Positions 20,893 to 45,288 of a DNA stretch of 64,000 nt are shown here, in pieces; the first letter of the stretch is position 1, and each line of letters opens with the position of its first letter. The position numbers and the translations under genes were made by a program. The notes under the pieces are model-generated. The model was not told the origin of the DNA, made no database searches, and saw only the letters and a program-made list of their open reading frames with translations. Source of the DNA: Pandoraea pnomenusa (GTDB lineage Bacteria; Pseudomonadota; Gammaproteobacteria; Burkholderiales; Burkholderiaceae); NCBI RefSeq assembly GCF_040391475.1, contig NZ_JBEBXS010000018.1, forward strand, positions 7,591-71,590, read 5' to 3'.

Positions 20893-20940
20893 CGCACGTC
20901 GATGACCGTCATGCGGCCCGGCGATGACTGAGTACCGTAT

Positions 20941-21851: not shown

Positions 21852-21905
21852 CGTCACGCTCCTCGTTCGTCGCGCTATGGCGCCATGGCCGCCCGACACC
21901 GGTGG

Positions 21906-24256: not shown

Positions 24257-24298
24257 GGAAACTCTCGAAGTCTTGATTGACGAAGGCGGCGTCCCGAC

Positions 24299-29468: not shown

Positions 29469-31264
29469 GCGGGCGTCTCCCCGTCCTGTGCGGCGTCGTT
29501 GTCCATCAGATTGCGTGTGGCACGATCGCGCAGCTCCAGCTTGCGAATCTTCTGGCTGCCGGTCAGCGGCCAGGCGTCGATGAACTCGACGTAGCGGGGC
29601 ACCTTGTAGCTCGCGATATGCTCGCGGCAGTACTGCTGCAGCGCGAAGGGCGAGATGTCTGCCCCGTCCTGGCACTCGATGTACGCGTAACCCACTTCGC
29701 CGAGGCGTGGGTCGGGCACACCGACGACGACCGCCTGACGCACGCCCGGATACGTCTTCAGGAAGACCTCGATCTCCTGCGTCGCGACATTGAAGCCGCC
29801 CGGCTTGATCATCTCCTTCACGCGCCCGCGGTACGTGAGGTAACCCTCGGTGTCGAGCTCGCCGAGATCGCCGGTAAGCAGCCAGCCCTGCGCGTCGATG
29901 GCTTTGCGATCTTCTTCGGGCATGCGGTAATAGCCCTTCATGACCACGTAGCCCGAAATGCAAATCTGGCCGATCGATCCGGCCGGCAGCGCCTGACCGG
30001 TCTCGATATCGGTAATGCGCACTTGCACGCCTCGCACCGGGCGCCCGTTCGTGCGGGAACGCTTCTCGTACGGGTCGTCCCAGCGGGTGCGCACCACCGC
30101 GTTCGAAGTCTCCGACATGCCGTAGGCACTCACCAGCTCCGGCACGTCGAGCGTGCTGCTCACCCACTCGAACGACGCCGTGGGGAGCGGTGCGCCCGTG
30201 CCGGTGCGCAGGCTCGACAGGTCGTACTGTCCGATGTCGGCAAACGCCTTGAGATCCTGAACGATGGTGTCGACGAAGAAGCTGACCGTGATGTGTTCGC
30301 GCTCCACCAGTTCACAGAAGAGCCTGGGCGAGAACTGATCGGCGATGACCATGGCGGCGCCGGACAGCGCCATCGCCAGCGTGTAGAACGTACCCGTCGC
30401 CGTGAAGAGCGGTACGCACGAGAGGTAGCGGTCCTGCGCTGTGAGGCGCAGGCACTGCGCCGCATAATGGTTGTTCGCGAGCAGCGCACCGTGGCGCACC
30501 ATCGCCCCCTTCGGGAACGACGTCGTGCCCGACGTGTACAGGATCTGCGCGACGTCGTCCGGGGCGACCTGCGCGAAGCGTCGCGCCAATGCGCCGTCGT
30601 CCATGCAGCGACGACCACGGGCTTCGATGGCGTTGAAACACTCCATGCCGGACGGCAGGGTGCGATCCGTGGAAGACAACCCGATGACACGGCGAAGCGC
30701 CGGCATGCGCTCACATTGCCATGCGCCCCGGCGCTGCATCGTCCACTCGGGATCGAGTTGCGCGAGGATGTCGAAGTAACGCACGCCACGCTCGGCCGAT
30801 CCGCCACGCTCCTGCACGATCAGCGTGGTCGCCTCGGATTGCCCCAGCACGTAGGCAACATCGCTGTCGCGGAACCGGGTGTTCACCGGCACCAGCACCG
30901 CGCCGATGAGCGGCACGGCCCATCGGGCAATGAGCCATTCGGTGCCGTCGGACATCCACAGCGCCACGTTCTCGCCGGGCCCCACGCCCAGCGACATCAA
31001 GCCGCGAGCGAACGCATGAATGCGTTGCGCCAACTGCGAGAACGTCAGGCGCGTCTCGCCGTGCACGACGGCCTCGCGATCGCCGTGAGCGTTCGCGATC
31101 CACGTCAGCGCACTCGCGAAGGTCTCGCGGGTCCAGTCGATCGCGTCGCCCGAAGGCGCCCCAACGTCTGCCAGGGCCGGCGTCGCTGTCGGGGCCAGTA
31201 CGCTATCGTCGTCTCGATTCATGGTCTGATTCATCCGTTCGCGTTCGCTCGGGGGCCGGATCAC
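29465..31264 (-). CDS. AMP-dependent acyl-CoA synthetase/ligase embedded in the ABC-transporter gene block
   Basis: AMP-binding motif ILYTSGTTSFPKGAMVRHG. Later motifs GQICISGYVVMKGYY, WLLTGDLG, GRVKEMIKPGGFNV. The GTG at 31264 overlaps the SBP stop codon. An ATG 30 nt downstream (31234, MNQTMN..) is an alternative start. Confidence 0.85.
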   Translation of the reverse strand: MIRPPSERERMNQTMNRDDDSVLAPTATPALADVGAPSGDAIDWTRETFASALTWIANAHGDREAVVHGETRLTFSQLAQRIHAFARGLMSLGVGPGENVALWMSDGTEWLIARWAVPLIGAVLVPVNTRFRDSDVAYVLGQSEATTLIVQERGGSAERGVRYFDILAQLDPEWTMQRRGAWQCERMPALRRVIGLSSTDRTLPSGMECFNAIEARGRRCMDDGALARRFAQVAPDDVAQILYTSGTTSFPKGAMVRHGALLANNHYAAQCLRLTAQDRYLSCVPLFTATGTFYTLAMALSGAAMVIADQFSPRLFCELVEREHITVSFFVDTIVQDLKAFADIGQYDLSSLRTGTGAPLPTASFEWVSSTLDVPELVSAYGMSETSNAVVRTRWDDPYEKRSRTNGRPVRGVQVRITDIETGQALPAGSIGQICISGYVVMKGYYRMPEEDRKAIDAQGWLLTGDLGELDTEGYLTYRGRVKEMIKPGGFNVATQEIEVFLKTYPGVRQAVVVGVPDPRLGEVGYAYIECQDGADISPFALQQYCREHIASYKVPRYVEFIDAWPLTGSQKIRKLELRDRATRNLMDNDAAQDGETPA

Positions 31265-32826
31265 TTCCAGCTGAGGCTGCGCAGGTTGTAGTACCCGCTG
31301 CCGTGCTGCGGCTCCCAGTTCAGCTTCACGTCCTGCGCAAAGGTGTAATAAAGCTCGGTAATCAGCACGGCGTGGCCGTCGTCATGCAGCAGCCGGCCGA
31401 TCTTCTTGAAGATCTCGTCGCGTTGCTCGCGCGAGGTGGCGGCGTCGCCCTCTGCGACCAGCTTTTCGACTTCCGGGTTGTAGTAATCGGACCACGTACC
31501 GTCTTTCGTCGCCGCACCGCTGATCGGGTGCACCGGATCGTAGATGGCGTTGGAGAACTGCATCATCGTCATCGGACCGCCCTTGTGCGTGTTGTTCAGG
31601 CGACTCCATGCGGCGTAGTCGATGACCTTGACGTTGGTCTTCACGCCCACCGCCGACCAGTACGCCGCGATCACTTCGCACAGCTCCTTCGGGTTGTCCG
31701 TCGGACACAGCAGATCGGTCGTGAAGCCGTTCGGATAACCGCCCTGCGCCAGCAGCTTCTTGGCCTGCGCCGGATCGTACGGATAAGGCTTGATCGTGCG
31801 ATCGACACCATAGGGATAGCTCGACGACACATACGACGACATTTGCGCACCCACGCCATGCAGTGCCTGATTGATGATCGCCTTGGTATCGAGCGCATAG
31901 TTCAGCGCCAGACGCACTTCTCGCTTCGAGAGCGGCGTGCCGGGCACGTTCGAGTACAACCGCACGGCCAGCGGGCTGCCCACGGGCACCGACTTCACGG
32001 TGAGACCGGCGTTCGACTTCAGGCGCGCCACGTCCACGCTCGGCACGTAGTCGATGACGTCGACTTCACCGTTGAGCAGCGCGTTGATACGGCTGCTCGC
32101 CTCGGGAATCACCTTGAAGACGAGACGCTTGATGCCCGGCTTCGGGCCCCAGTACCCATCGAATCGATCGAGCGTGACCGACTGCCCGATCTTCTGCTCG
32201 ACGAACTTGTACGGGCCCGAACCCACCGGCGCCCGCGCGAACGCCTCGGGCGACGCCAGCGATTCGGTATAGGCCTTGGGCACCAGCAGGAGGTAGCCGG
32301 CGATCTTGTTGAGGAATGCGCCGTCCTGACGCTTCAGATGAAACACGACAGTCGTGTCGTTCGGCGCATCGACGTGATCGACCAGATTGGCGAAGTAAGG
32401 CCGCCGGGTGCTCTTTGTCTCCGGCGCGACGATCCGCTCCAGCGAGTACTTCACGTCCTTGGCCGTAAGCTTCGCGCCGTTGTGAAACTTGACGTCGTTG
32501 CGCAGCGTGAAGGTGTACTGCAGGCCGTCAGGGGCGATCTTCACGCCGGTGGCCACGCTCGGCTTGAGGTTGCCGTCGATGTCGAACGCGTAAAGCGTGT
32601 CGAACAGCTGCCAGCCGTAGCGCTGCGAGTCGCCCGTCGCGGCCACCTGGCCGTCGAGGTTGTTGATGTCCTTGCCCACGGCGAAGACAACGGTATCGCG
32701 ATCGACCGCCGGTTTGCCACCGATGGCCATCGACGCCGTCGGCGACAGGAGCGCCGCGCACAATGCGATGCCCGATCCGAGCCACGCCATCTTGCGCGGC
32801 CACGCTTGCAATGCCCGTGTGTGCAT
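31261..32826 (-). CDS. ABC transporter substrate-binding protein, family 5 (peptide/opine/nickel type), paralog 1
   Basis: Signal peptide (..LLSPTASMA). SBP_bac_5 hallmarks ..GDSQRYGWQLFDTLYAFD.., KFHNGAKLTAKDVKYSLER, ..AAWSRLNN... Confidence 0.9.
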   Translation of the reverse strand: MHTRALQAWPRKMAWLGSGIALCAALLSPTASMAIGGKPAVDRDTVVFAVGKDINNLDGQVAATGDSQRYGWQLFDTLYAFDIDGNLKPSVATGVKIAPDGLQYTFTLRNDVKFHNGAKLTAKDVKYSLERIVAPETKSTRRPYFANLVDHVDAPNDTTVVFHLKRQDGAFLNKIAGYLLLVPKAYTESLASPEAFARAPVGSGPYKFVEQKIGQSVTLDRFDGYWGPKPGIKRLVFKVIPEASSRINALLNGEVDVIDYVPSVDVARLKSNAGLTVKSVPVGSPLAVRLYSNVPGTPLSKREVRLALNYALDTKAIINQALHGVGAQMSSYVSSSYPYGVDRTIKPYPYDPAQAKKLLAQGGYPNGFTTDLLCPTDNPKELCEVIAAYWSAVGVKTNVKVIDYAAWSRLNNTHKGGPMTMMQFSNAIYDPVHPISGAATKDGTWSDYYNPEVEKLVAEGDAATSREQRDEIFKKIGRLLHDDGHAVLITELYYTFAQDVKLNWEPQHGSGYYNLRSLSWK

Positions 32827-32859
32827 TGAATTCTCCGAAGAAAGACGCCGGACGAAGAC

Positions 32860-33633
32860 TTACCGCAGTGTCTCCGGGCCGCCTTTGACATAGATGATTT
32901 GCCCCGAAACGAACGACGCGTCTTCACTGCAGAGGAATGCCACGACATTGGCGATGTCCCGCGGCACACCGACGCGGCCGAGCGGAATGCTCTTGGCACG
33001 CTGCCGTTTGTATTCCTCGGGATCGATGCCGCGACGCTCTGCGGTCTGACGCGTCATTTCGGTGTCGACGAACCCCGGCGCCACCGCGTTGACGTTGATG
33101 TTGAAGGGGCCGAGTTCGATGGCGGCCGTGCGCGTGAAGGCTTGCAAACCCGCCTTGGCCGACGAGTAGTTCGCCTGCCCGCGATTGCCGAGTGCCGATG
33201 TGGAAGAGAGATTGACGATCTTGCCGCTGCGTTGCTCGACCATATGTCGTTGCGCGGCGCGCGTGCACAGGAAAGTGCCGCGCAAGTGGACGTTCATGAC
33301 GCGATCCCAGTCGTCGACCGACATCTTGAACAGCAGGTTGTCACGGGTGACGCCTGCATTGTTCACGAGGACGTCGAGTCCGCCGAGTTGCGCGATCACC
33401 TGCGCAAACAGCGTCTCGACCTGCGCCTCGTCGGTCACGTCGCATCCGAAGCCTACGGCCTCGAATCCGCCGTCACGACGTAATGCGTCAGCGGCCGTTT
33501 GTGCAGCGTCTGCCGAGATATCGCAGATCGCCACACGCGCACCCTCCTGCGCGAACCGTTCGGCGGTCGCGTAGCCGATGCCACGCGCGCCTCCCGTCAC
33601 TAGGACCACCTTTCCCTGGAAGCGATTGCTCAT
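32860..33633 (-). CDS. SDR family oxidoreductase (FabG-like 3-oxo/3-hydroxyacyl reductase)
   Basis: Start trimmed to the ATG at 33633 (MSNRFQGKVVLVTGGARGIGYA). Also NNAG and YSSAKAGL. First gene of the long minus-strand operon. Confidence 0.9.
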   Translation of the reverse strand: MSNRFQGKVVLVTGGARGIGYATAERFAQEGARVAICDISADAAQTAADALRRDGGFEAVGFGCDVTDEAQVETLFAQVIAQLGGLDVLVNNAGVTRDNLLFKMSVDDWDRVMNVHLRGTFLCTRAAQRHMVEQRSGKIVNLSSTSALGNRGQANYSSAKAGLQAFTRTAAIELGPFNINVNAVAPGFVDTEMTRQTAERRGIDPEEYKRQRAKSIPLGRVGVPRDIANVVAFLCSEDASFVSGQIIYVKGGPETLR

Positions 33634-33992
33634 GCGCTTGCGTCTCCTGGTTGTGGCGCTGCCTGATCTATGCAGGCAGTCGTCGTAATGCAAACCAGTC
33701 TAGTCACGCGTTGCGATATGGTCAATATTTGAAACAAATAACTTTGCACAAATTTCATCAGGGATAACTCTCAGTTCATTCGACACACCATCGGTTATCT
33801 TTATAACGCAAGCGAAAGCCAGTCTTTATATGGATTACTACTTAGCTAATCACGACAATTCCACTTGCATCACCTGCTGAAACTGGCGCATCATTTATTC
33901 CACTATTTGAACGTTTACGCGACAGACCCCGAAACATCATGCAGAACGCGGCGCCACTCACCCGCTCCTTGTCGCCTGACGCGCCTCGCGCG

Positions 33993-35594
33993 TCAGGCAA
34001 GGCGTGCGCCCACGCTCTGCGCCACTTCACCGGTTTGCGCGGCGTTCCGCCCGGCAATACGGCCGCCGACGATGCACTCGGCAAGGTTGCCGCCCGCCAT
34101 GTAGATGTGGCCGAATACGCTGCCAAGCTCCCCCGCAGCGAAGAGCCCCGGAATCGGCTCACCGAACGGATCGAGCACTCGCTGCGATGCATCATGCACG
34201 GGACCGCCCTGCGTATTGATGACAACCGGCCACAGCGACGCCGCGTAGTACGGCCCCTCGCGCAGCGGCGTCATCGTCTCCGGCCGACGTCCGAAGGCGT
34301 CGTCATGCCCGGCATCACACCCCGCATTCCACTCCGCTACCGTGCGCACCAGCCCTTGAGCATCGATGCCCAGCTTTTGCGCGAGCGCCTCGATCGTGTC
34401 GGCCTTTTGCAACAAACCGTTCTCGACTTCCTTCAGGTTGTCGGCACTCCATTCGTACCAGGCATCGCGATCGTTCGTGATCGAGCGGCCCATCGGGTAC
34501 ATGCGGCGCCCGGCCTCATCGAAGATCAGGAACGACGGCAGGCGATCGTGCCGATAGGCCGACGGATCGTAGTGATCGAACTGGCGCACTCCGGTGTCCG
34601 AGATGTACGGCGGATACTCGTTGACGTAGCGACGCCCGCGTTGATCGACGACGATCCACGCCATCTTCGGCAACGGCTTCGACGCGCGCTCGGGCGTCCA
34701 CATCGGCAGAATCTTGGCGTAAATGCCAAACGGGTACGACGGATCGGGATGGCGAATCCCGTACGGCCCGTGGTGGTGCCACATATGCCAGAGGGCAGCG
34801 CCCGCTGCTTGCGCCATGCGAATGCCGTCACCCGTGTTGCCGCGAAAGCTCCCCGGCAGCACCGGGGTCGAGACGAAGAACTGACGCTTCATCTCCTCGT
34901 CGGCCTCAAAGCCGCCGCAAGCGAGAACCACCCCACTGCGCGCACGCACGTGAAGCGATTCGTCATGCCTGCGCAGCCGCACGCCGACCACTTCGCGCGT
35001 GGCGCCCTGCACCAGCCGCTCGACGCTCGTCGACAACCACACGTCGATCAGTCCCTTCGCGCGGCGCGCCTCGACGTTGTCCAGCAGCAACTTGAACAAC
35101 AGACATCCCGGGCGGAAGGGCCTCGCCGCAAGATACCCCGCAGGATCCCCGAAGCCGGGAATCGATTCGATGTCCGCGTAGGCGAGCGAATCGCATCCCG
35201 GGAACGGGTAGTTGCCGGTTGCCGGCTCCACACGCACGACAGCGCCGTCGACTTCCGCGAGTTCGCGCAGATACGCCGGCACCTGCGTCATACCGACGGC
35301 AAGGGTCTCCAACACATCGTCGGGCGTGCGTCCGCCGCAGGTGCGCTGAAGGTAGCGAAACGCCGCCTGCGCATCGTCGGACACGCGCACACCGCCGGCC
35401 GACAGAATCGAAATGCCGCCCGGATCGGGCATTTTTTCGATCAACAACACACGCGCACCGGCGTCTGCACTTTCGATGGCCGCCACGGCACCCGCCGCGC
35501 CGTAGCCCACGACAATCACGTCATATTCCGCCTGCCACTGCGCCGCCACGCCGGGCGCGATCCGATGTTCCGAAGTCTCCAAGAAAGCAACCAT
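33993..35594 (-). CDS. FAD-dependent oxidoreductase (FAD_binding_2 class: KstD / fumarate-reductase-flavoprotein-like)
   Basis: Start trimmed to the ATG at 35594. Dinucleotide fold YDVIVVGYGAAGAVAAIESADAGARVLLIEK. C-terminal GLFAAGELGS..GGNLAECIVGGRIAG is typical of this family. Confidence 0.85.
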   Translation of the reverse strand: MVAFLETSEHRIAPGVAAQWQAEYDVIVVGYGAAGAVAAIESADAGARVLLIEKMPDPGGISILSAGGVRVSDDAQAAFRYLQRTCGGRTPDDVLETLAVGMTQVPAYLRELAEVDGAVVRVEPATGNYPFPGCDSLAYADIESIPGFGDPAGYLAARPFRPGCLLFKLLLDNVEARRAKGLIDVWLSTSVERLVQGATREVVGVRLRRHDESLHVRARSGVVLACGGFEADEEMKRQFFVSTPVLPGSFRGNTGDGIRMAQAAGAALWHMWHHHGPYGIRHPDPSYPFGIYAKILPMWTPERASKPLPKMAWIVVDQRGRRYVNEYPPYISDTGVRQFDHYDPSAYRHDRLPSFLIFDEAGRRMYPMGRSITNDRDAWYEWSADNLKEVENGLLQKADTIEALAQKLGIDAQGLVRTVAEWNAGCDAGHDDAFGRRPETMTPLREGPYYAASLWPVVINTQGGPVHDASQRVLDPFGEPIPGLFAAGELGSVFGHIYMAGGNLAECIVGGRIAGRNAAQTGEVAQSVGARLA

Positions 35595-35665
35595 GTGTCG
35601 ACGACTCCTAGTTGTCCACTGCACATCAATTCTTAAACCCACACCATTACCCGGAGGAAACCGAG

Positions 35666-35887
35666 ATGCCCACCCACACCGTCCAATCTGAAATCACCGG
35701 CACCGTCTGTCAGGTACTTGTCGCCGAAGGCGACACCGTGTCGGAAGATCAGGCCCTGCTGATGGTCGAGTCGATGAAGATGGAAATTCCGGTCATCGCA
35801 CCGCGCGCCGGACGCGTTACGAAAGTGCACTTCAACGTGGGCGATCCGATCGGCGAAGGTGACGGCGCCGTAAGCATCGACACCTGA
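35666..35887 (+). CDS. Minimal biotin carboxyl carrier protein (stand-alone biotinyl domain, 73 aa)
   Basis: Start trimmed to the ATG at 35666, with RBS ggagga 8 nt upstream. Biotinylation motif LMVESMKMEIPV is embedded in a lipoyl/biotinyl fold-length sequence. Confidence 0.85.
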   Translation: MPTHTVQSEITGTVCQVLVAEGDTVSEDQALLMVESMKMEIPVIAPRAGRVTKVHFNVGDPIGEGDGAVSIDT

Positions 35888-35948
35888 TCGCCACCCACGG
35901 GACGTCGTCGCCGCACGCCACATCACGTGACGCGCGGCGACGATTCCC

Positions 35949-37547
35949 TTAGTGCCAGGCGACCTTGCGGAAGTTGAGGAAGCCCGAGCCTTGCTGCACC
36001 CCCCACGTCAGCGACTTCTTCTTCGCGAAGACGTTGAACAATTCCGTCACGAGCACCGCCGAAGCGTCGTCATGGAGGATCTTGCCGATCTTGCGGAACA
36101 GCGCACCGCGCGCCTCTGCGCCCGTCGTCGTATCGAGCTGCTTGAGTAGCGCCTCGACTTCGGGGTTGGAGTAATCGGACCAGGCACCGTCTTTCGAGAA
36201 CGACCCTGCGACCGGATGGATCGGGTCGTAGATGGCGTTCGTGAATTGCGTGGTCGTCATCGGGCCGGTCTTGTGCGTGTTGTTCAGACGACTCCACGCC
36301 GCATAGTCGATGCGATTGATGTCGACCTTCACGCCGACCTGCCCCCAGTAGGCCGCCAGCGCTTCCGCGAACTCCTTCGGCGTTCCCACGGCGTCGTAGA
36401 GCTTGATCGAGAAACCGTTCGGATACCCCGCCTGCTTGAGCAGTGCGCGCGCCTTCACGGGATCGTACGGATACGGTGCGACGCTCGGATCGCCGCCATA
36501 GGGGAAGTATTTCGAGATGAACGTACCCATCGGCGCACCGACACCGTGGAACACGCCCTTGATGATGGCGTTGGCGTCGATGGCGTAGTTCAGCGCAAGG
36601 CGCACGTCACGCTTGGACAACGGCGAGTCCGGCACATTCGAGTACAGGCGCACGTGCATCGGCGACGACACCGGATTGGTGATGACGTCGAGCGCGGCGT
36701 CCTGACGCAGACGGGCCACCTCGGCGAGCGGGATCATCGCCGCGATGTCGACCTCGCCCGACACAATCGCGTTGACCCGGCTCGACGGCTCCGGGATGTA
36801 TTTGAAGACGAGCGTCTTGATGGCAGGCTTGTCGCCATAAAAATCGTCGAAGCGCTCGAGCTCGAGATATTGGCCGACCTTGTTGGTTTTCACGCGATAA
36901 GGTCCCGTGCCGATCGGCGCGGCAGCGAACGCCTCCACATTCGGCAGCGACGACGTGTACTTCTGCGGCACGATGAACAGGAAGCCCGCGATCTTGTTGA
37001 GGAAGACGCCGTCGGGCTGCTTCAGGCGAACACGAACCGTGAGCGGGTCAGGCGTGTCGACACCATCGATGACCGGCGCGAAATAGGGGCGACGCGTACT
37101 CTTCGACACCGGATCGATCACGCGCTCGATCGAGTACTTCACATCCGCCGAAGTGAACGGATCGCCGTTGTGGAACTTGATGTTCGGCCGGAGCTTGAAG
37201 GTGTAGACGAGCCCATCGGACGACATGGTGTAGCTCGTGGCCATGCGCGGCACGATGTTGCCCTTGGCATCGAAGCCGTAGAGCGTATCGAAAATCGACA
37301 TCGCATAGCGCTGCGAATCGCCGCTCGCCGTGACCAGCGCGTCGAGACTCTGAATCTCCTTGTCGAGCGCGATCACCAGCGTGTTGCGGTCCACCGCCGG
37401 CCCCGTCTTGTCAGCCGCCGCCGCGTCGGCGGACACACCCGCCGCCCCGAGCAAACCCAGCGCTCCAGCGGTCAGCGCGGTCATCGCCCCGAGCCGCAAC
37501 CCCGACGTCACACGCGCCATCGCGCGCCATCCCGTGATTCGATTCAT
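35949..37547 (-). CDS. ABC transporter substrate-binding protein, family 5, paralog 2 (orphan; no adjacent permease genes)
   Basis: Alignable by eye with the SBP at 31261-32826 over long blocks (GDSQRYAMSIFDTLYGFD, KFHNGDPFTSADVKYSIERV, STRRPYFAP, FLNKIAGFLFIVPQKY, AAWSRLNNTHK). Signal peptide ..GAAGVSADA. I chose the ATG at 37547; the track uses a GTG at 37571. Confidence 0.9.
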   Translation of the reverse strand: MNRITGWRAMARVTSGLRLGAMTALTAGALGLLGAAGVSADAAAADKTGPAVDRNTLVIALDKEIQSLDALVTASGDSQRYAMSIFDTLYGFDAKGNIVPRMATSYTMSSDGLVYTFKLRPNIKFHNGDPFTSADVKYSIERVIDPVSKSTRRPYFAPVIDGVDTPDPLTVRVRLKQPDGVFLNKIAGFLFIVPQKYTSSLPNVEAFAAAPIGTGPYRVKTNKVGQYLELERFDDFYGDKPAIKTLVFKYIPEPSSRVNAIVSGEVDIAAMIPLAEVARLRQDAALDVITNPVSSPMHVRLYSNVPDSPLSKRDVRLALNYAIDANAIIKGVFHGVGAPMGTFISKYFPYGGDPSVAPYPYDPVKARALLKQAGYPNGFSIKLYDAVGTPKEFAEALAAYWGQVGVKVDINRIDYAAWSRLNNTHKTGPMTTTQFTNAIYDPIHPVAGSFSKDGAWSDYSNPEVEALLKQLDTTTGAEARGALFRKIGKILHDDASAVLVTELFNVFAKKKSLTWGVQQGSGFLNFRKVAWH

Positions 37548-37804
37548 TTCGACCTCATTATGTATGTTCACATATTGGAATTACAAAAGCATCGAAAACC
37601 CCACCCGGATTTGTACCAATTCTTCTGGCACGTTGTTGAAATATCCGCTATAAAAGCTAGGAAACATGGTTCACGATGTCAATAAGCGATCATACCGACG
37701 CGACATCCTCGCTCACGCAGCGCACCATATAATCGTTATCTATTTCAATATATGGAAATCCGGAAAGCCGAACGCTCCGGATACATCGCACCGCCAGGAA
37801 ACTC

Positions 37805-39343
37805 ATGGACAAACGCAAGATCGACGAACTCCACGCACGCCGCGAAGCGATCCGTACCGCGACGTCGGCGACAGCTATCGAAAAGCTTCGCGACCAGGGG
37901 AAGCTCACGGCACGCGAGCGGATTGCGTTGTTGCTGGACGACGGAAGCTTCGTCGAGATGGGCATTCATGCGCACAGTGCGCACCCGTCGTTGCGTGAGC
38001 GAACCCCTGCCGACGGCATCGTGACCGGGCACGGCACCATCGACGGACGCATCGTCTACGTGGCCGCCGACGACGCGACCGTGCTGGGCGGCACGCGTGG
38101 GCGCGTTGGCGAGATCAAGATCGCGCGCGTGCGCGATGCTGCATTGCGCCATCGAAAACCGTTCATTGCGCTGATGGAAGCCGGCGCGGCGCGCGTGCAG
38201 GAGAGCTTCGGCGCGATGGCCGCGAATATGGGCGCACGTTTCGCCGATCATTTCCGGATGTCCGGTCAGATTCCGCAACTCGCCGCGATCCTCGGCCCGG
38301 CCTTTGGCGGCCCCTCGTTCACCGCCGCGCAATCCGACTTCACTGCCCTCGCGCGCGGCACCGGTGTGATGGGCATGTCGGGGCCGCTCGTGGTGAGGGT
38401 CGGCACGGGGGAAACGGTCACGACCGACGCGATTGGCGGTGCGGACGTCAGCGAGACCGTCACCGGGCAGGCGGACTATGTCGGCGATACCGAAGCGGAC
38501 ACGCTGCGCAGCCTGCGAACGTTTCTGTCTTTCCTTCCGAGTCATTGCGACGAACTGCCGCCGGTGGCGGAAGCGAAACCGGCTGCCGTCGACACGGAAG
38601 ACGGTCGCGAGAAGCTGCGCGCCTTGATCCCCGATATTGGCCGTCAGGCATACGACATGAAGCGCGTGCTCAGCCTGCTCGTCGACGCGGGCGACCTGTT
38701 TCATTACCGGCCGCGCTTCGGGCCGAACCTGATTACCGCGTTCGGGCGGATCGATGGGCAGCCGGTCGGCTTCGTCGCCTCGAATCCGATGGCGCGCGGT
38801 GGCGTGATGGATGAGAAGACGGCGCAGAAGGCACGCAAGTTTGTCGATATCTGCGACGCGTTCCACGTGCCGCTTGTCTTCATCTGCGACGCGCCCGGCT
38901 TTCTCGTGGGGCCCGACATCGAGAAGCACCGGATGGTGTCGCTCGCTGCGCGCCTGCTCAATACCGTGTGTGCGGCGTCGGTGCCGAAGATCACGATCGT
39001 GGCGCGCAAGGCGATTGGGCTGGCCTATCTGGCGATGTGCGGCCGTGCCATGCGCCCCGACTATCTGGCCGCGTGGCCCGGCGCACACTTCGATGTGATG
39101 GGACCGGAAGCAGGTGTCGAACTCGTGTACGGACGCGAAATCGCTGCAGCGCCGGACCCCGCCGCACGCAAGGCCGAGATCATGGCCCGACTCGACGAAC
39201 AATCGAGCGCGCTCGAGGCCGCGGCGCAAGGCTGGATCGACGATGTGATCGACCCTGCCGAGACCCGCAACGCCATCCGGCAAGCGTTGCGCGCGGCGGC
39301 AGACGCTCGCCGCCCGGGATTCAAACATCGCATCGACCCTTGA
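37805..39343 (+). CDS. Acyl-CoA carboxylase carboxyltransferase (beta) subunit
   Basis: N-terminal KLRDQGKLTARERIALLLDDGSFVEMG and the two-crotonase-lobe organisation are typical of PccB/MccB/AtuC-type carboxyltransferases. Confidence 0.9.
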   Translation: MDKRKIDELHARREAIRTATSATAIEKLRDQGKLTARERIALLLDDGSFVEMGIHAHSAHPSLRERTPADGIVTGHGTIDGRIVYVAADDATVLGGTRGRVGEIKIARVRDAALRHRKPFIALMEAGAARVQESFGAMAANMGARFADHFRMSGQIPQLAAILGPAFGGPSFTAAQSDFTALARGTGVMGMSGPLVVRVGTGETVTTDAIGGADVSETVTGQADYVGDTEADTLRSLRTFLSFLPSHCDELPPVAEAKPAAVDTEDGREKLRALIPDIGRQAYDMKRVLSLLVDAGDLFHYRPRFGPNLITAFGRIDGQPVGFVASNPMARGGVMDEKTAQKARKFVDICDAFHVPLVFICDAPGFLVGPDIEKHRMVSLAARLLNTVCAASVPKITIVARKAIGLAYLAMCGRAMRPDYLAAWPGAHFDVMGPEAGVELVYGREIAAAPDPAARKAEIMARLDEQSSALEAAAQGWIDDVIDPAETRNAIRQALRAAADARRPGFKHRIDP

Positions 39344-39388
39344 GCCATCGGCCCGGACGTCGTCCCCCCATCGAATGACCTCGACACC

Positions 39389-40177
39389 ATGAGCATCGAT
39401 TTCTCCGTGAACGAAGGCGTGGCCACCGTGCGCCTGAACCGTCCGGAGGCGCTCAATGCCATCGACTATCCGATGCGCACTCGCCTTCAGGAACTGTGGC
39501 GCCATATCGGCAGCACGCCGGAGATTCGCGCCGTGGTCGTCACCGGCACCGGGGAACGCGCGTTCAGCAGCGGCGCGGACCTACGGCGAACGCCGCCGCC
39601 AGCTACATCGTTCGCCGCCCAGATGTTTGGCGGGGCAGGCGCCGAGCCCGAAGTGGGATCGCTGACGGTCGGCCTCGATTTCGACACGCCCGTGATCTGC
39701 GCTTTCAATGGACTCGCCTACGGTGGCGGTCTGGAGATCGGTCTGGCGTGCGACATTCGCATCGCCGCCGACACAGCGCGCTTCGGGTTGCCTGAGGTCA
39801 CGGTTGGATCGATGCCGGGTTCTGGCGGCACGCAGCGGCTGCCTCGCCTGATCGGCAGCGCCAACGCCATGTGGATGTTGTTGACCGGCGATTCGATCGA
39901 CGCTCAAACTGCACTACGCATCGGGTTGGTGAGTCATGTGGTGCCGCCGGAGGCGCTTGCCGAGACTGCCAACGGCATGGCCCGACGGATTGCCGATGCA
40001 GCACCGCTGGCGGTACGCGCCATCAAACGCGCAGCGCGCGATGGCCTGGAAATGTCGTTGCAGGCAGGTCTCGCACACGAGCGTCAGATGTGGGGACTGC
40101 TGCGCGACACGGAAGATCGCAAGGAGGGTCGGGAGGCATTCGTACAGAAGCGCCCACCCGTGTATCGGGGACGTTGA
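39389..40177 (+). CDS. Enoyl-CoA hydratase/isomerase (crotonase) family protein
   Basis: RPEALNAI, VVVTGTGERAFSSGADL, AFNGLAYGGGLEIGLACDIRIA, EDRKEGREAFVQKR. Confidence 0.9.
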   Translation: MSIDFSVNEGVATVRLNRPEALNAIDYPMRTRLQELWRHIGSTPEIRAVVVTGTGERAFSSGADLRRTPPPATSFAAQMFGGAGAEPEVGSLTVGLDFDTPVICAFNGLAYGGGLEIGLACDIRIAADTARFGLPEVTVGSMPGSGGTQRLPRLIGSANAMWMLLTGDSIDAQTALRIGLVSHVVPPEALAETANGMARRIADAAPLAVRAIKRAARDGLEMSLQAGLAHERQMWGLLRDTEDRKEGREAFVQKRPPVYRGR

Positions 40178-40316
40178 AGTGGTGAGGTAAAGCCGGATTC
40201 GCGTGGGTCTGATCTTATGACGCGGCGATGCCTGCGGCATACTTCGCACTCCCATCATTGATAAGCCGAAGCGCCTGCGCAGCACAGGCGCCATACGGCA
40301 CTACGGACCGTTTTCC

Positions 40317-41234
40317 ATGAACCTGCCTCCACGATCCGCCAGTGGCTTCGACGACGGCCTTGTCGACGCCCCGCCATCGCCACCGGGCAGTGCATCGAAT
40401 GGCGACGCGACGCATGCGTCTGCTCCGCGCCGCGCGAACGAGGGGACGCAGAGCATACAGCGCGCCATCGCCGTGCTGCGCCTCATTGCCATGCGCGGCC
40501 CACAGGGGTTGCGGCTGCATGAAATTGCCGAGGGCCTGGCGCTGGAGCGCATTACGGCGCATCGGATCGTCAAGGGACTGGCGTTCAGCAACATGCTGCA
40601 ACTCGACGCGCAGACGCGACGCTACACGCTCGGCCACATGGCGTATCTGCTCGGCCTGAGTGCATCGCCAGCGTTCGACCTGAAGGAGCGATGCCAGCCG
40701 ACGTTGCGGCGACTGGCCGACGCCACCGGAGATTCGGTCTTCCTGATGGTACGAAGCGGCTTCGAGGCCGTGTGTTTCGACCACGTGCAGGGCAGCTACC
40801 CCATTCGCACGCACAGCCTGAAGATCGGCGCTCGCCGGGCGCTCGGTGCGGGCGCCGGAGCGATGGCGCTGCTTGCCGCACTGCCGGACCATGACGTCGA
40901 AACGGCCATCGCGGCGAACGCCATGCACTTGCCGCGCTATCGCGACATCTCGCCCGAGCGGTTGCGCGAGCTTGTCGCGAAGACACGACAGGACGGTTAC
41001 GCCACCAATTTGCAGACGGTGATTGCGGACGTGAGCGCCATCGGCATGACGCTGCCGCGCCGCGATGGCCCGGCATTCGTTTCGATCAGTATCGCGTCGA
41101 TCACTTCGCGCATGACGGGTGCGCATCTCGACGAAGCGCGGCACGCGCTCAGGCACGAGACCGACGCGCTGGGTCTATTGCTCGACGACGCGCGCGTGAA
41201 GTGGGGCGGCATGACCGACGACGCTTCCCGCTAG
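40317..41234 (+). CDS. IclR family transcriptional regulator (paralog 2), embedded between the hydratase and biotin carboxylase genes
   Basis: GTQSIQRAIAVLRLIA..LRLHEIAEGLALERITAHRIVKGL and GDSVFLMVRSGFEAVC. It aligns block for block with the IclR at 19446-20327. Confidence 0.85.
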   Translation: MNLPPRSASGFDDGLVDAPPSPPGSASNGDATHASAPRRANEGTQSIQRAIAVLRLIAMRGPQGLRLHEIAEGLALERITAHRIVKGLAFSNMLQLDAQTRRYTLGHMAYLLGLSASPAFDLKERCQPTLRRLADATGDSVFLMVRSGFEAVCFDHVQGSYPIRTHSLKIGARRALGAGAGAMALLAALPDHDVETAIAANAMHLPRYRDISPERLRELVAKTRQDGYATNLQTVIADVSAIGMTLPRRDGPAFVSISIASITSRMTGAHLDEARHALRHETDALGLLLDDARVKWGGMTDDASR

Positions 41235-41299
41235 CGGGTGACGGTATCGACACAGTTTCGGGAGCGTTCCCGACCATGACAACGCAGGAGGTAGGAGAC

Positions 41300-42652
41300 A
41301 TGTTTACGAAGGTCCTCGTCGCGAATCGCGGCGCTGTTGCGGCGCGCATCATTCGCGCGCTGCGTCAGATGAACATCCGTTCCGTCGCCGTGTGTTCCGA
41401 GGCCGACGCGACGCTGCCGTATCTCGCGCAAGCCGACGAGGTTTATGCCATTGGCCCGGCGCCTGCAATGTCGAGCTACCTCGATCAGGATCGCCTGTTG
41501 GATGTGCTGGCGCGCTCAAAGGCGGACGCCGTGCATCCGGGTTACGGGTTTCTCTCGGAGAATGCCGCCTTCGCACGGCGTGTGATCGAGGCGGGTGCGG
41601 CATTCATCGGACCGTCGCCGCGTTGGATCGAGGCCATGGGACACAAGACACGCGCCAGGGAGTTGATGGCGCGTCACGGCATGCCGATGTCGCCGAGTTC
41701 GGGGCTGCTCGACGACCACACGGAATCGATCAGCGCCGCCGCGCGGGCTATCGGCTATCCGGTGCTCATCAAACCGGCTGCAGGCGGTGGTGGTATCGGC
41801 ATGGTGCCGGCACGCGACGAAGTCTCGCTGCTCGCCGCGATTGCGCAGGCGCGTTCAGTGTCGCAGAAGAGCTTCGGCAATGGCGACCTCTATCTGGAAA
41901 AGCTGATCGAGCGGCCGCGTCATATCGAGTTTCAGATTCTGGCGGACAAGGCGGGGAACGCCTGCCATCTGTTCGAGCGGGACTGCTCGGTTCAGCGTCG
42001 GCATCAGAAGGTGATCGAGGAATCGCCGGCACCGCTGTTGCCGCGTCGCGACATGGAGAAGACCGCAGAGCGGATCGCCGGGCTGCTGCAGGACATGGGC
42101 TACGACGTCATCGGCACGGCGGAGACGCTTTTCGGCGCCGACGGGACGTGCAATTTCCTGGAAATGAATACGCGATTGCAGGTCGAGCACGCGGTGACGG
42201 AAGCGATTACCGGCGTAGATCTGGTGACGTCGCAGATTCGGCTTGCGGCGGGGGAAGGACTGGCGTCGGTGATTCCCGATGCGCCGCGTGTGAATGGGCA
42301 CGCCATTGAAGTGCGCGTGTATGCGGAGGACCCGGTGCGATTCTTTCCGTCACCGGGGAAGCTGGAGACCTTCGAGCTGCCACAAGGAGAAGGGATTCGC
42401 GTGGAGACCGGGTACATGCAGGGAAATACCGTCACGCCGTATTACGATCCAATGCTCGCGAAGATTATCGTTCACGCGGTGGATCGTGCGGCGGCGATCC
42501 GGCAGATGAAAGAGGCGCTGCTTGCAACGCAGGTGCGCGGCGTGAAGACGAACATCCCGTTCGCGGTTCAGGTACTCGATGATGAGCTGTTTCAGCTCGG
42601 ACACATTCATACCGGCTTGGGGACGGATATTCTGGCGGCGGCGCGGCATTGA
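41300..42652 (+). CDS. Biotin carboxylase (ATP-grasp) subunit without a fused BCCP domain
   Basis: Start trimmed to the ATG at 41300 (RBS aggaggtagga). MFTKVLVANRGAVAARIIRA.., HPGYGFLSENA, IEFQILADKAGN, EMNTRLQVEHAVTE. The protein ends after the BC C-terminal domain (450 aa). Confidence 0.9.
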   Translation: MFTKVLVANRGAVAARIIRALRQMNIRSVAVCSEADATLPYLAQADEVYAIGPAPAMSSYLDQDRLLDVLARSKADAVHPGYGFLSENAAFARRVIEAGAAFIGPSPRWIEAMGHKTRARELMARHGMPMSPSSGLLDDHTESISAAARAIGYPVLIKPAAGGGGIGMVPARDEVSLLAAIAQARSVSQKSFGNGDLYLEKLIERPRHIEFQILADKAGNACHLFERDCSVQRRHQKVIEESPAPLLPRRDMEKTAERIAGLLQDMGYDVIGTAETLFGADGTCNFLEMNTRLQVEHAVTEAITGVDLVTSQIRLAAGEGLASVIPDAPRVNGHAIEVRVYAEDPVRFFPSPGKLETFELPQGEGIRVETGYMQGNTVTPYYDPMLAKIIVHAVDRAAAIRQMKEALLATQVRGVKTNIPFAVQVLDDELFQLGHIHTGLGTDILAAARH

Positions 42653-42718
42653 GGGGATGCGGCACGGCGTGATGCCGTGTTGTTCGGGCGTTCAGGCGTT
42701 CAGGCGGTAGAAATGACG

Positions 42719-42752
42719 ATAGGCCACGTGATTCTCACGTGGCCTATTTTTT
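42719..42752 (+). terminator. Strong rho-independent terminator after the biotin carboxylase gene
   Basis: Perfect 12-bp stem ataggccacgtg / cacgtggcctat, loop attct, followed by tttttt. Confidence 0.85.
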
Positions 42753-42968
42753 GCGTCAGCTATGCCATTGCGCGCTGGCACCTTCGCTGTACTAATACTT
42801 CCGTAGATATTTTGTATCCCGAATCGTTAAAGATAACGCCATCGCCTGCCGATATTTAAGTACGCCGCCATTCAGATCAATGGGCACCCTCGCCATTCTA
42901 TGGGTATGAATCTCGGCTTTCGGCGTACCAATTTCGCGAAAGCCGACAACTACATCACGCCACGCGAC

Positions 42969-43619
42969 ATGAATAAATCGATCAGACGCATTGTCACGTT
43001 GTCAGCATCAGCGAGCATCCTTAGCGCATGTTCGGCACTTGAACCGACTCGCCATATCCTCACGCAGAACCCCACCTATGATCCGGCCACATCGGCGCGG
43101 CTGCGAGTGCAAGGCTCCAATGCCGGGGGGCAAGTAGCATTGCGTTTCGGGCAAGCTTGCTACCCGCCCGCGTACGAAGACGACGGAAAGACGGTTCTCG
43201 GGCAGGGCCGCGGCTTTTTTACCCAGTACAAGTATTCGTCGACGAGCGTGCTGATCGGCATGCCGGAGAGCCCCCGAAAGTGGATGCGCGCCGATGGGCT
43301 CAAGTTCAAGGAATACATCATGGAGTACGTCGTCCCTGCGGATGCGCCCACCATCGTGTTGCTCAGCGGCAATCGTGCCATCAATTACGGCGGATCGAGG
43401 CAAGCCCAGACGTGCACGCCGCCCCCCACTCAGTTCACGCCGCAACCCGGTAAGGACTACGAGGCATTCGAAGAGGGCGGCGGCGGGAGATGCTGGATCG
43501 AAATCCGTGAGATCGATGCACGCGGCCACGACATTCCCGTTGCAGCAAGTCGCGCACCCTATTGCACCCCGAGCAAGGTGGTGGAGGCAGTCAAGACGGG
43601 GCCGGATGCCGAACACTGA
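42969..43619 (+). CDS. Hypothetical lipoprotein (216 aa)
   Basis: Start trimmed to MNKSIRRIVTLSASASILSAC (lipobox L-S-A-C). The mature part has four further Cys residues. I recognise no family motif. GC content is lower than in the surrounding genes. Confidence 0.6.
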   Translation: MNKSIRRIVTLSASASILSACSALEPTRHILTQNPTYDPATSARLRVQGSNAGGQVALRFGQACYPPAYEDDGKTVLGQGRGFFTQYKYSSTSVLIGMPESPRKWMRADGLKFKEYIMEYVVPADAPTIVLLSGNRAINYGGSRQAQTCTPPPTQFTPQPGKDYEAFEEGGGGRCWIEIREIDARGHDIPVAASRAPYCTPSKVVEAVKTGPDAEH

Positions 43620-43649
43620 TCCCCATCCCTCATCTATCGGAGATTTTCA

Positions 43650-44066
43650 ATGCATAAACATTTGCTGACGCTTCTGTGCTGTGTCGCCGTCCCCGCAATG
43701 GCCTCGGTCAAGTGCGAGACGCAGAACCTCAACGGTCATAGCACCAATATCTGCGTGAATTCGGGTAAGTTCTCACACGATTACTACACGCTCGTCGTGG
43801 ACAAGAGCGTTTTGTTCACCCTTCCCGACGATTATGTTGAAGACATCGTACTGACCCATCGTGTTCCGGAAGACGCCGCCATTGAATTCCCGGCTTCGGC
43901 CAGCCTTGCTGCCGGGACGGTCGTTCGCATCACCGGCGGCTGCGTGCCTGTCAGCGAAAAGAAGCCCCTCGGCGGGAAAATGATCGGCATAGAAGTGGCT
44001 CGGGTCTGCTCGTTCAAATGGGGTGATGTCGATGTGCTGAAGGACGCGCGACTGAGTTTTGAATGA
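43650..44066 (+). CDS. Hypothetical small secreted protein (138 aa)
   Basis: Signal peptide MHKHLLTLLCCVAVPAMA/SV. Four Cys in the mature part. No recognised motif. Followed by an imperfect hairpin aaccccgggaaa..tttctcggggtt at about 44089-44127. Confidence 0.6.
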   Translation: MHKHLLTLLCCVAVPAMASVKCETQNLNGHSTNICVNSGKFSHDYYTLVVDKSVLFTLPDDYVEDIVLTHRVPEDAAIEFPASASLAAGTVVRITGGCVPVSEKKPLGGKMIGIEVARVCSFKWGDVDVLKDARLSFE

Positions 44067-44262
44067 TTGGCTGGGGGATCCCAGACAGAAAAACCCCGGG
44101 AAACTGTCGTTTTCTCGGGGTTTTCGAAGCTCGTCAAACGTCTGCGAAGCTACAGGGGTAACTCCACCACGACCGGATGATTGCAGCGCTTTTGTGATTA
44201 TCCGCCTCCGTCCGGTACTTGGTCAGGCTCGGCGCTTCCGAAGCGTCGAACGGATATCCGAT

Positions 44263-45069
44263 ATGTTTAGAAGAGGGGAAAGTGTGCGCCGTCTCAAGCT
44301 TTTGTTTATGTTTGCCTGCGTGTATTTCGGTTCGACCAGCACCGTCTTCGCAGCTCAGTTGGACGGCTACTTTGAAGCGAGTCGACAGTTCGATGCATGG
44401 ATAGAGAAAACCGGCGCCATGCCGCGTCTTTCAGACGAACGGGCGGCCACGTTCCTTGCCACGCTTTCTGACAGTCAGCGCTTTCTGGACGGAAATACAT
44501 TCGACGAAGCACAGCTTCCCGCGCTGCTGGATCTGTGCGACAAGGCGAACCGCAAAGGCATTGTTTACCTAATGTTCGATCTGGACAAAGAGTTCGACGA
44601 GAGCATGCCCCTTGAAGCTGCCCAGCAGGTCATCATCAAACGGATGCTGCAGAACGCCCACACTTACCAGAACGAATTGGCAGAACTGCAGCCGTTTGCG
44701 ACGCGGTGCATGGGAAGGTTGGTATCGTCAATTTCGCCGCTTTTCGACCGCATGAAGCCGGAGGAAATCACATCCGTGCGCCGCGCGGGACTCGATAAGA
44801 TGCGCAAGGGGATGGATTCTGCCGTTCTTGGAACGTTGGTCTCTGCAAGCGACCTTTCGCTGAAAGATCGCTACCGGACGAACACGCTCATGGCAGTTGC
44901 GGAAACCGCGCCCCAGTTTGTTTCCGCCATGAATCCAGACGAGCGAGAGAAACTCTTGTCGGCGGCAAAAGAGGCAATCAGTACAGCACCGGAAAATCTG
45001 AAAGGCTACATTGAGAAAATCGCAGACGCGCTCGCGGAGCCAAGCTGCGAAGGGTTGTGCCGGTACTGA
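44263..45069 (+). CDS. Hypothetical exported, predicted all-helical protein (~260 aa)
   Basis: The track ORF starts at 44059, but the hydrophobic signal-like segment (RRLKLLFMFACVYFGSTSTVFA/AQ) follows the ATG at 44263. A GTG at 44284 with RBS aagagggga is an alternative start. No recognised motif. Confidence 0.55.
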   Translation: MFRRGESVRRLKLLFMFACVYFGSTSTVFAAQLDGYFEASRQFDAWIEKTGAMPRLSDERAATFLATLSDSQRFLDGNTFDEAQLPALLDLCDKANRKGIVYLMFDLDKEFDESMPLEAAQQVIIKRMLQNAHTYQNELAELQPFATRCMGRLVSSISPLFDRMKPEEITSVRRAGLDKMRKGMDSAVLGTLVSASDLSLKDRYRTNTLMAVAETAPQFVSAMNPDEREKLLSAAKEAISTAPENLKGYIEKIADALAEPSCEGLCRY

Positions 45070-45171
45070 TCGAGGTGTCTGCTTTCCGACTTCAGTGACC
45101 GATGAGGGTCGGAAACTGCCCCCAATTATCGAACGGGACACACGATGTTCCGCGATGCGGGGTTGGAAACG

Positions 45172-45201
45172 CAAAAGGGTTACGTGAAGATCACGTAACC
45201 C
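45172..45201 (-). terminator. Hairpin plus TTTT (minus strand) just downstream of tRNA-Thr
   Basis: 11-bp perfect stem gggttacgtga / tcacgtaaccc with a 3-nt loop. On the minus strand it is followed by ttttgc. Confidence 0.6.
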
Positions 45202-45212
45202 CTTGCTGTATT

Positions 45213-45288
<76 letters not shown>

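Follow-up and report, generated by a model that had tools for sequence, protein, structure and literature searches.

Three genes for the functions of a biotin-dependent acyl-CoA carboxylase lie apart from one another in a 64,000-nucleotide stretch of the Pandoraea pnomenusa genome (assembly GCF_040391475.1, contig NZ_JBEBXS010000018.1, positions 7,591 to 71,590; in the following, the window refers to this whole stretch, which is GC-rich with about 63%): a biotin carboxylase (BC), a carboxyltransferase (CT) and a stand-alone biotin carboxyl carrier protein of minimal size (mini-BCCP). The original prediction had read this arrangement as a split three-protein carboxylase, and the presence of separate genes for the BC, the carrier and the CT supports it. 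The details of the layout could be confirmed as well (Table 1), namely a BC devoid of any biotinyl domain, a CT gene followed after 45 nt by the gene of a crotonase-type enoyl-CoA hydratase (ECH), a regulatory gene of the IclR family between the crotonase and BC genes, and a carrier gene that is remote from the BC gene and separated from the CT gene by an oppositely oriented gene for a periplasmic solute-binding protein (SBP). Two minus-strand genes, encoding the SBP and a flavoprotein, thereby flank the plus-strand mini-BCCP gene, in front of which a ribosome-binding site (GGAGGAA) is found 7 nt upstream.

Table 1. Genes and putative control elements of the carboxylase locus and its surroundings (positions within the window)
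Feature	Positions	Strand	Basis
Mini-BCCP, 73 aa, stand-alone biotin carboxyl carrier	35666-35887	+	Pfam Biotin_lipoyl 3e-16; NCBIfam NF004547/NF006079 (~70-aa carrier models)
CT (beta subunit), 512 aa, PccB-related uncharacterised clade	37805-39343	+	Pfam Carboxyl_trans 9e-116; PDB; trees
Crotonase-type ECH	39389-40177	+	Pfam ECH_1 8e-62
IclR-family regulator between crotonase and BC genes	40317-41234	+	Pfam HTH_IclR and IclR_C
Stand-alone BC, 450 aa	41300-42652	+	Pfam/NCBIfam: Biotin_carb_N, CPSase_L_D2, Biotin_carb_C
KstD-like FAD_binding_2 flavoprotein	33993-35642	-	Pfam
Family-5 periplasmic SBP, divergent from CT operon	35949-37571	-	Pfam SBP_bac_5 1e-89
Associated operon: short-chain dehydrogenase/reductase (SDR), SBP, acyl-CoA ligase, ATP-binding cassette (ABC) permeases and ATPases, DszC/SfnB-like protein with acyl-CoA dehydrogenase (ACAD) fold, ACAD, MaoC hydratase, flavin reductase	20344-33693	-	Pfam/NCBIfam
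Second IclR-family regulator gene beside the unit	19446-20327		
Divergent control region of 71 bp, flavoprotein/BCCP; assumes flavoprotein start at 35594	35595-35665	.	Sequence; putative function
Inverted repeat with 17-nt arms between convergent BCCP and SBP genes	35905-35943	.	Repeat search
AT-rich divergent control region, SBP/CT	37572-37804	.	CACCAT-N-GTTATCT-N-ATATGGA, repeated upstream of SDR operon (33694-33992)
Strong intrinsic terminator behind BC, closing the CT-ECH-IclR-BC unit and the island	42718-42748	+	14-bp stem, then T run
tRNA-Thr(UGU)	45213-45288		

The small carrier shows the features expected of a biotinyl domain, as the original prediction had recognised from its VESMKME motif. 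The biotinyl-Lys is K38 (within VESMKME/ESMKME), and the AlphaFold model (pLDDT 88) resembles the BCCP of P. horikoshii (TM-score 0.94, Foldseek) as well as the biotin/lipoyl attachment protein (BLAP) of Bacillus subtilis (PDB 1Z6H; TM-score 0.86 at 39% identity). Its 44 orthologues are all about 73 aa in size and in 42 of them E(S/A)MKME is conserved, with K38 and the MKM motif being invariant among the 26 orthologues aligned. The best NCBIfam match is NF004547, a model of the Rv3221c/TB7.3-type with 71 aa, which is reached with 71.5 bits at a cut-off of 75. The further claim that this protein is the only carrier holds within the window, but not for the entire genome. There (at 99.7% completeness) we found three BC domains, four Carboxyl_trans matches and, besides lipoyl proteins, three biotinyl carriers. 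AccC and AccB are encoded on contig 24, AccA and AccD on contig 11, and a CT together with a fused BC-BCCP on contig 28 (39399-40901 and 47874-48875) represents a canonical methylcrotonyl-CoA carboxylase (MCC), its CT matching the MCC beta subunit of Pseudomonas aeruginosa with 893 bits. Since acetyl-CoA carboxylase (ACC) and MCC account for all remaining BCs, CTs and carriers, the BC, the CT and the mini-BCCP of the window are each other's only free partners in this organism. Apart from the contig 28 MCC beta subunit, no other CT of the PccB family and no canonical PccB is encoded in the genome.

Proteins with 92-95% identity to the CT occur in P. fibrosis, P. aquatica and P. commovens. Among proteins of solved structure (PDB), its best relatives are the alpha-carboxylating enzymes PccB, 12S and AccD5, led by PccB of Streptomyces coelicolor (349 bits) and the 12S transcarboxylase of P. 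shermanii (348 bits), whereas most beta subunits of MCC and geranyl-CoA carboxylase (GCC) score between 213 and 220 bits (220 and 216 bits, respectively, for those of P. aeruginosa), MCC-type AccD1 and M. smegmatis chains 244-253 bits, and glutaconyl-CoA decarboxylase at most 99 bits. The best match in NCBIfam, mmdA, reaches 432 bits, which is far under its cut-off of 999. The trees we calculated included paralogues of relatives and of three Alphaproteobacteria that carry the cluster, and canonical PccB was recognised among them by a fused PccA next door and by 998 bits to PccB of Methylorubrum. The CT family forms a single clade in these trees (support 99-100), placed apart from MCC beta as well as from canonical PccB, to which (Xanthobacter, Ferrovibrio) the CT is 37-39% identical, compared with about 32% for MCC beta. 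Phylogenetic placement, which the original prediction had proposed as a check, hence assigns the CT to a clade of its own, and an affiliation with the beta subunits of MCC or GCC can be dismissed on the grounds of both tree and scores.

The CT family also has invariant motifs of its own. The Carboxyl_trans domain is full length and the first Gly-Gly pair (G168, G169) invariant; at the same time, the family invariably contains EAGAAR in place of DSGGAR and IGLAYL in place of FGGAYD. The specificity residue D422 of S. coelicolor PccB corresponds to Leu409, with Leu being found in 12S as well, and a motif similar to GxSYLAMC of the 12S transcarboxylase is present. A search for longer proteins revealed no fusion of this CT with the flavoprotein or the carrier; its sole match, a protein similar to long-chain acyl-CoA carboxylase with 39% identity, is not a fused member of the family.

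All catalytic motifs of the BC are intact (ERDCSVQRRHQKVIEE, EMNTRLQVEH, GHAIEVRV), and the protein ends at residue 450 without a Biotin_lipoyl domain in the Pfam and NCBIfam scans. It is 50% identical to AccC of the same genome and belongs to a well-supported clade apart from AccC, whose members are cluster-associated in Alpha- and Betaproteobacteria. The crotonase carries both catalytic Glu motifs (GGGLEIGL and GLPEVTVG), and no methylglutaconyl or carboxygeranoyl hydratase model is found among its top NCBIfam matches. In Xanthobacter tagetidis (locus L135; G427 C77:187300-190800), a BC orthologue with 58% identity adjoins a CT paralogue with 36% identity, the latter being read in an open reading frame (ORF) of 822 aa with the CT domain starting at about residue 342; this arrangement may represent another split carboxylase or, alternatively, a CT extended at its N-terminus.

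The distribution of the CT is patchy: an orthologue is present in only six of 24 sampled Pandoraea species and was not found among 400 genomes sampled from the same order, and the position of the island differs between Pandoraea genomes, wherefore we regard the island as accessory. No CT match above 43% identity was found in the plasmid collection. Scanning 185,579 species genomes by pattern yielded 80 loci with a CT of 50-95% identity, which belong to Burkholderiales and several alphaproteobacterial orders. One of them (NZ_FXAT01000001.1, titled Paraburkholderia susongensis) contains the whole cluster in the same order with 86-96% protein identity to Pandoraea, pointing either to a recent transfer or to a wrong taxonomy of the record. 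Several metagenome-assembled genomes labelled Bordetella parapertussis likewise look mislabelled.

When the CT loci were searched with the proteins of the window and their ORFs clustered, a recurring set of neighbours emerged, comprising the flavoprotein (53 loci), the SDR (47), the mini-BCCP (44), a first ACAD (ACAD1, 38), a four-domain rhodanese (32), a MocR regulator (28), the BC, the family-5 SBP and the MaoC hydratase (27 each) and a second ACAD (ACAD2, 23). For counts of co-occurrence, we used those 56 loci in which the CT gene has 8 kb or more of flanking sequence on both sides. The mini-BCCP and the flavoprotein are each present in 45 of these, and they come and go together, both accompanying the CT in 43 loci and neither in 9, with only 4 loci being discordant. 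Directly downstream of the CT gene lies the flavoprotein gene in 32 loci, while the mini-BCCP gene is located within 500 bp in 24, in 23 of which it is divergent. Of the 43 loci containing both mini-BCCP and flavoprotein, 24 have a BC gene at a distance of no more than 10 kb. Thus, the co-occurrence of carrier, BC and CT, suggested earlier as a test, is evident for carrier and CT and partial for the BC. A crotonase gene follows CT, or CT and flavoprotein, in at least 23 of the 43 loci, and CT and crotonase genes are adjacent in 12 of the 56; the crotonase is a lineage-variable neighbour and the KstD-like flavoprotein the most constant partner of CT and mini-BCCP. Gene orders vary, for example BCCP<-BC next to CT->FAD in Azospirillum and CT-ECH beside BC-BCCP in Pusillimonas, and because the parts occur in several orders, selection seems to act on the set of parts rather than the linkage being inherited synteny. 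In a subgroup of CTs with 56-59% identity (loci L037, L041, L047, L057 and similar ones), no mini-BCCP, flavoprotein or BC was detected within 10 kb; an opposite-strand AMP-ligase gene follows the CT gene in L037, L041 and L047, not in L057, and the CTs of L041, L047 and L057 cluster in the thinned tree, with L037 elsewhere. Perhaps these CTs are orphans that have another partner.

The flavoprotein aligns with urocanate reductases, fumarate reductases and KstD, and the ESM Atlas places it in generic FAD-oxidoreductase clusters only. The His and Arg residues that bind the carboxylate are missing, with INTQGG for HHTMGG and YMAGGN for NRLGGN, as in KstD, for which reason an enzyme of the fumarate reductase type acting on a dicarboxylate was rejected. 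A desaturase acting beside a carbonyl group is the likeliest function. The neighbouring minus-strand operon encodes functions of import and CoA-dependent oxidation, including an SBP5/ABC importer and a short-chain-type ACAD, and its DszC/SfnB-like protein is accompanied by a flavin reductase; a 585-aa minus-strand ORF spans 21906-23663. Orthologues of SDR, ACAD1, MaoC and ACAD2 recur beside the CT in other genomes, and the proposed link between carboxylase and neighbouring catabolic operon is reinforced by the joint travelling of mini-BCCP, CT, flavoprotein, SDR and ACAD in dozens of genomes. The operon is presumed to be the source of the carboxylase substrate.

In alphaproteobacterial clusters, a tripartite ATP-independent periplasmic (TRAP) transporter and a family-III CoA-transferase replace the ABC importer and the ligase, and four further proteins are added: the four-domain rhodanese, a 3-hydroxy-3-methylglutaryl (HMG)-CoA-synthase-like/DUF35 protein, an SCP-x-type thiolase and an EhuR-like MocR regulator. 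The rhodanese, about 540 aa in size, is encoded between the MaoC/ACAD and thiolase genes (L070:6945-8474, L072:5685-7307 and 30 other loci); the cluster of the window lacks it, and homologues with 37-38% identity are encoded on contigs 32 and 10 of the genome. The HMG-CoA-synthase-like domain is fused to DUF35 beside the thiolase gene (L033:2763-4247, L074:2989-4461, L089:2940-4412), and this trio resembles PhlABC or BbsAB, which by analogy suggests an unusual C-C cleavage or condensation. Overall, the pathway looks like a beta-oxidation of a hindered acid, similar to the Bbs-type or that of steroid side chains. Hints of sulfur are confined to the rhodanese and the DszC/SfnB-like oxygenase and are weak. 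3-Sulfinopropionyl-CoA desulfinase is the top NCBIfam match of ACAD1, yet with 281 bits at a cut-off of 600, and the best solved relatives of ACAD1 are butyryl-CoA dehydrogenases, so that this assignment was rejected. Two organosulfur substrates were discarded as well. X. tagetidis and Aquamicrobium carry the cluster, which brought thiophene-2-carboxylate into consideration, but supporting literature was not found and non-degrading relatives carry the cluster too; as for 3,3'-thiodipropionate, the proteome paper on V. paradoxus TBEA6 names no carboxylase or biotin.

Taking these data together, we propose that the three proteins form one dedicated biotin-dependent acyl-CoA carboxylase, which alpha-carboxylates an acyl-CoA supplied by the adjacent import and beta-oxidation operon, and we assign this reading a probability of about 0.6. 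The stand-alone BC would carboxylate the biotin on the free 73-aa carrier at the expense of ATP and bicarbonate; the carrier would then shuttle to the CT, and the latter would transfer CO2 to the alpha-carbon (C2) of an acyl-CoA that arises from import, CoA ligation and beta-oxidation by the products of the operon. The resulting 2-carboxyacyl-CoA would be processed within the cluster instead of being passed to a mutase, with the KstD-type flavoprotein desaturating it beside the carbonyl group and the crotonase hydrating the product. While gene content, intact motifs, clade membership and conserved linkage are demonstrated by the data, we infer the partnering of the proteins, the regiochemistry, the sequence in which the steps occur, and the substrate. 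The latter may be a short or medium acid, possibly sulfur-bearing or sterically blocked, and it is probably new, as the CT clade is uncharacterised and almost always accompanied by a KstD-like flavoprotein. A bolder version, for which we would claim somewhat less than an even chance, is that the CT clade stands for a new substrate class and forms a fixed module with KstD-type flavoprotein and hydratase, in which an acyl-CoA intractable to normal beta-oxidation would be carboxylated, desaturated and hydrated. The substrate of the module may be an organosulfur acid, given that both the four-domain rhodanese and a DszC/SfnB-like oxygenase are added in many alphaproteobacterial clusters.

Several observations speak against the dedicated three-protein carboxylase and should be noted here. 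Throughout the CT family, the oxyanion-hole residue G419 of PccB is replaced by Leu (Leu406), and activity of the CT, which is assumed here, is plausible because only backbone amides are used at this position. The BC is not a fixed companion: 19 of the 43 loci with mini-BCCP and flavoprotein are devoid of a BC gene within 10 kb, other BC lineages are employed by the clusters of Pusillimonas, Roseovarius and Variovorax M-6, the dedicated clade is not represented anywhere in X. flavus, and the clade-type BC of X. tagetidis adjoins a different CT paralogue. The use of other lineages indicates that the BC partner is exchangeable or borrowed, and together with the cases of X. flavus and X. tagetidis it makes the BC the least fixed component of the system. 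Furthermore, the co-occurrence counts derive from related genomes and are not independent, no paper or biochemical data on the CT family were found in the literature, and the proposals on substrate and flavoprotein function are inferential.

Some of these observations lend themselves to other explanations. If the BC gene were optional, CT and mini-BCCP could operate without a dedicated BC, as a transcarboxylase or a carboxyacyl-CoA decarboxylase. The loci devoid of a nearby BC gene and the lack of the BC clade in X. flavus fit this idea, as do mmdA as best NCBIfam match of the CT (well below cut-off, see above) and the GxSYLAMC-like motif common to CT and 12S. However, the BC of the window has intact motifs and lies downstream of the CT in the predicted transcript, BC genes in 24 of 43 clusters occur in three different arrangements, and a second CT of the 5S-type is not among the conserved neighbours. 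No match to the pump subunit OAD_beta (PF03977) was found in the genome, which excludes a sodium-pumping decarboxylase; on balance, we hold a BC-free system to be quite unlikely. An ordinary short-chain carboxylase in split form, disposing of propionyl-, acetyl- or butyryl-CoA as end product of beta-oxidation, seems unlikely too, albeit worth reckoning with. PccB and the 12S transcarboxylase are the nearest solved relatives of the CT, Leu occupies the position of D422 as in 12S, the neighbouring ACAD resembles short-chain butyryl-CoA dehydrogenases, and besides the MCC beta subunit this Pandoraea has no other PccB-type CT. On the other hand, the CT differs from PccB in overall identity and by its family-specific active-site motifs, and it almost never occurs without the KstD-like flavoprotein. 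Moreover, the genome (99.7% complete) contains no match to methylmalonyl-CoA mutase (PF01642), which would be needed to use methylmalonyl-CoA, and propionyl-CoA presumably takes another route, such as the methylcitrate cycle. The missing mutase, together with the fact that Alphaproteobacteria harbouring this CT keep a canonical PccB/PccA (998 bits to the Methylorubrum PccB), renders the role of an ordinary propionyl-CoA carboxylase (PCC) unlikely.

The original prediction had drawn an analogy to MCC and GCC, where a beta-methyl branch is removed by carboxylase, hydratase and lyase. Accordingly, the CT would carboxylate a beta-methyl-branched enoyl-CoA at the gamma position, and the crotonase and a lyase that has not been seen would act thereafter. 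The adjacency of CT and crotonase here and in other loci, the Atu/Liu-like content of the cluster (ligase, ACADs, SDR, ECH), the HMG-CoA-synthase-like gene in alphaproteobacterial clusters and the split enzyme of B. subtilis, which is thought to be an MCC (PMC4016012), would all be in line with such a route. Yet the CT falls outside the MCC-beta/GCC-beta clade, the genome already has its own MCC on contig 28, and the crotonase is variable and has neither of the specialised hydratase models among its top matches. An HMG-CoA-lyase-like gene, already reported missing from the window, is absent from the whole contig, the four HMGL-like matches of the genome all being located on other contigs; with no such lyase on the contig and a CT that is not of the MCC/GCC type, the analogy lacks support, and we consider this route improbable. 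Finally, the 73-aa protein could be unrelated to CT and BC, being a component of a PxpABC/KipIA-type system, an alternative raised at the outset, or a lipoyl protein. Short biotinyl and lipoyl domains are hard to separate by sequence, and the mini-BCCP gene is predicted to be transcribed alone. However, the MKM motif is invariant and the carrier gene is found within 10 kb of the CT gene in 45 of the 56 loci and within 500 bp in 24. The sole PxpB homologue of the genome is encoded on contig 16 without a BC or carrier nearby, which removes the Pxp/Kip alternative, and an unrelated carrier is, in our view, hardly credible.

As to the expression of the proposed three-protein carboxylase, the hairpin between the convergent mini-BCCP and SBP genes is probably a bidirectional terminator, and because it would probably terminate both ways, the mini-BCCP gene would be monocistronic. 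A box with the sequence CACCAT-N(3-6)-GTTATCT-N(5-9)-ATATGGA is found by sequence comparison at 33780-33830 and 37725-37765, thus in front of the SDR and CT operons, and the CACCAT box of these two AT-rich regions also occurs in the 71-bp region between the flavoprotein and mini-BCCP genes. The shared box is consistent with common regulation of both operons, though it exists in two copies only, and one of the two IclR regulators, which probably control the carboxylase unit, may use it as its operator. Between the BC terminator and tRNA-Thr (42753-45288), the GC content is lower (0.57-0.585) and ORFs with high GC at third codon positions are missing; since the position of the island differs among Pandoraea genomes, this tRNA-flanked region appears to be variable.

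A split of BC and BCCP is not unprecedented in this class of enzymes, and the earlier premise that it would be was too strong. BLAP (YngHB) of B. subtilis is a stand-alone carrier that is biotinylated by BirA in vitro, and the carboxylase subunits encoded next to it are believed to make up an MCC that serves leucine degradation (PMC4016012). YngH, YngHB and YngE resemble the proteins described here in consisting of a separate BC, a stand-alone carrier with roughly 73 aa and a CT with some 510 aa within an operon of acyl-CoA catabolism. The yng operon also encodes HMG-CoA lyase, a ligase, an ACAD and a crotonase; in contrast, the Pandoraea contig is devoid of a lyase, and its CT is of a type other than MCC and has a KstD-like flavoprotein as constant partner. 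Archaeal ACC/PCC (AccC, AccB and PccB of Metallosphaera and Acidianus) consists of three separate proteins too and serves CO2 fixation on acetyl- and propionyl-CoA. It likewise combines a separate BC and BCCP with a PccB-type CT, but the archaeal BCCP has about 170 aa with an N-terminal extension, as opposed to the 73 aa of the Pandoraea carrier, and the archaeal enzyme is not known to have a linked flavoprotein. With proteins of the Rv3221c/TB7.3-type, the carrier has in common that it is a stand-alone single biotinyl domain, differing in a match just below the family cut-off and in the genomic context; to our knowledge, the partner enzymes of Rv3221c have not been defined. PccA/PccB and 12S share with the present system the CT fold, the two-domain layout, the presumed alpha-carboxylation and, for 12S, the Leu at the D422 position, but here the alpha subunit is split and lacks a BT domain, and in Alphaproteobacteria the CT coexists with canonical PCC. 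LiuB/LiuD and AtuC/AtuF are similar in placing a biotin carboxylase into a cluster for acyl-CoA catabolism that also encodes ACAD, crotonase, SDR and ligase; the Pandoraea system differs from these MCC and GCC enzymes by unfused BC and BCCP, a beta subunit of another clade and the lack of a lyase on the contig.

Hence, the split architecture itself has precedents, and what is new here are the CT clade, the BC lineage dedicated to it, the near-obligate association of both CT and carrier with a KstD-like flavoprotein and the absence of a known downstream route. The substrates known so far for biotin-dependent acyl-CoA carboxylases fall into few classes (acetyl-, propionyl-, long-chain acyl-, methylcrotonyl- and geranyl-CoA), and each new class revealed a new catabolic logic. 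The finding would be ordinary if the substrate turned out to be propionyl-CoA. Nevertheless, the uncharacterised CT clade is coherent and occurs in at least 80 species, and with a BC lineage of its own, a free carrier of minimal size and a flavoprotein as partner, it offers a cloneable system for substrate discovery. In alpha6-beta6 carboxylases, the BT domain holds the complex together, and the Pandoraea system would also allow to ask how carboxylation proceeds when the carrier is a freely diffusing protein of 8 kDa and no such domain is present.

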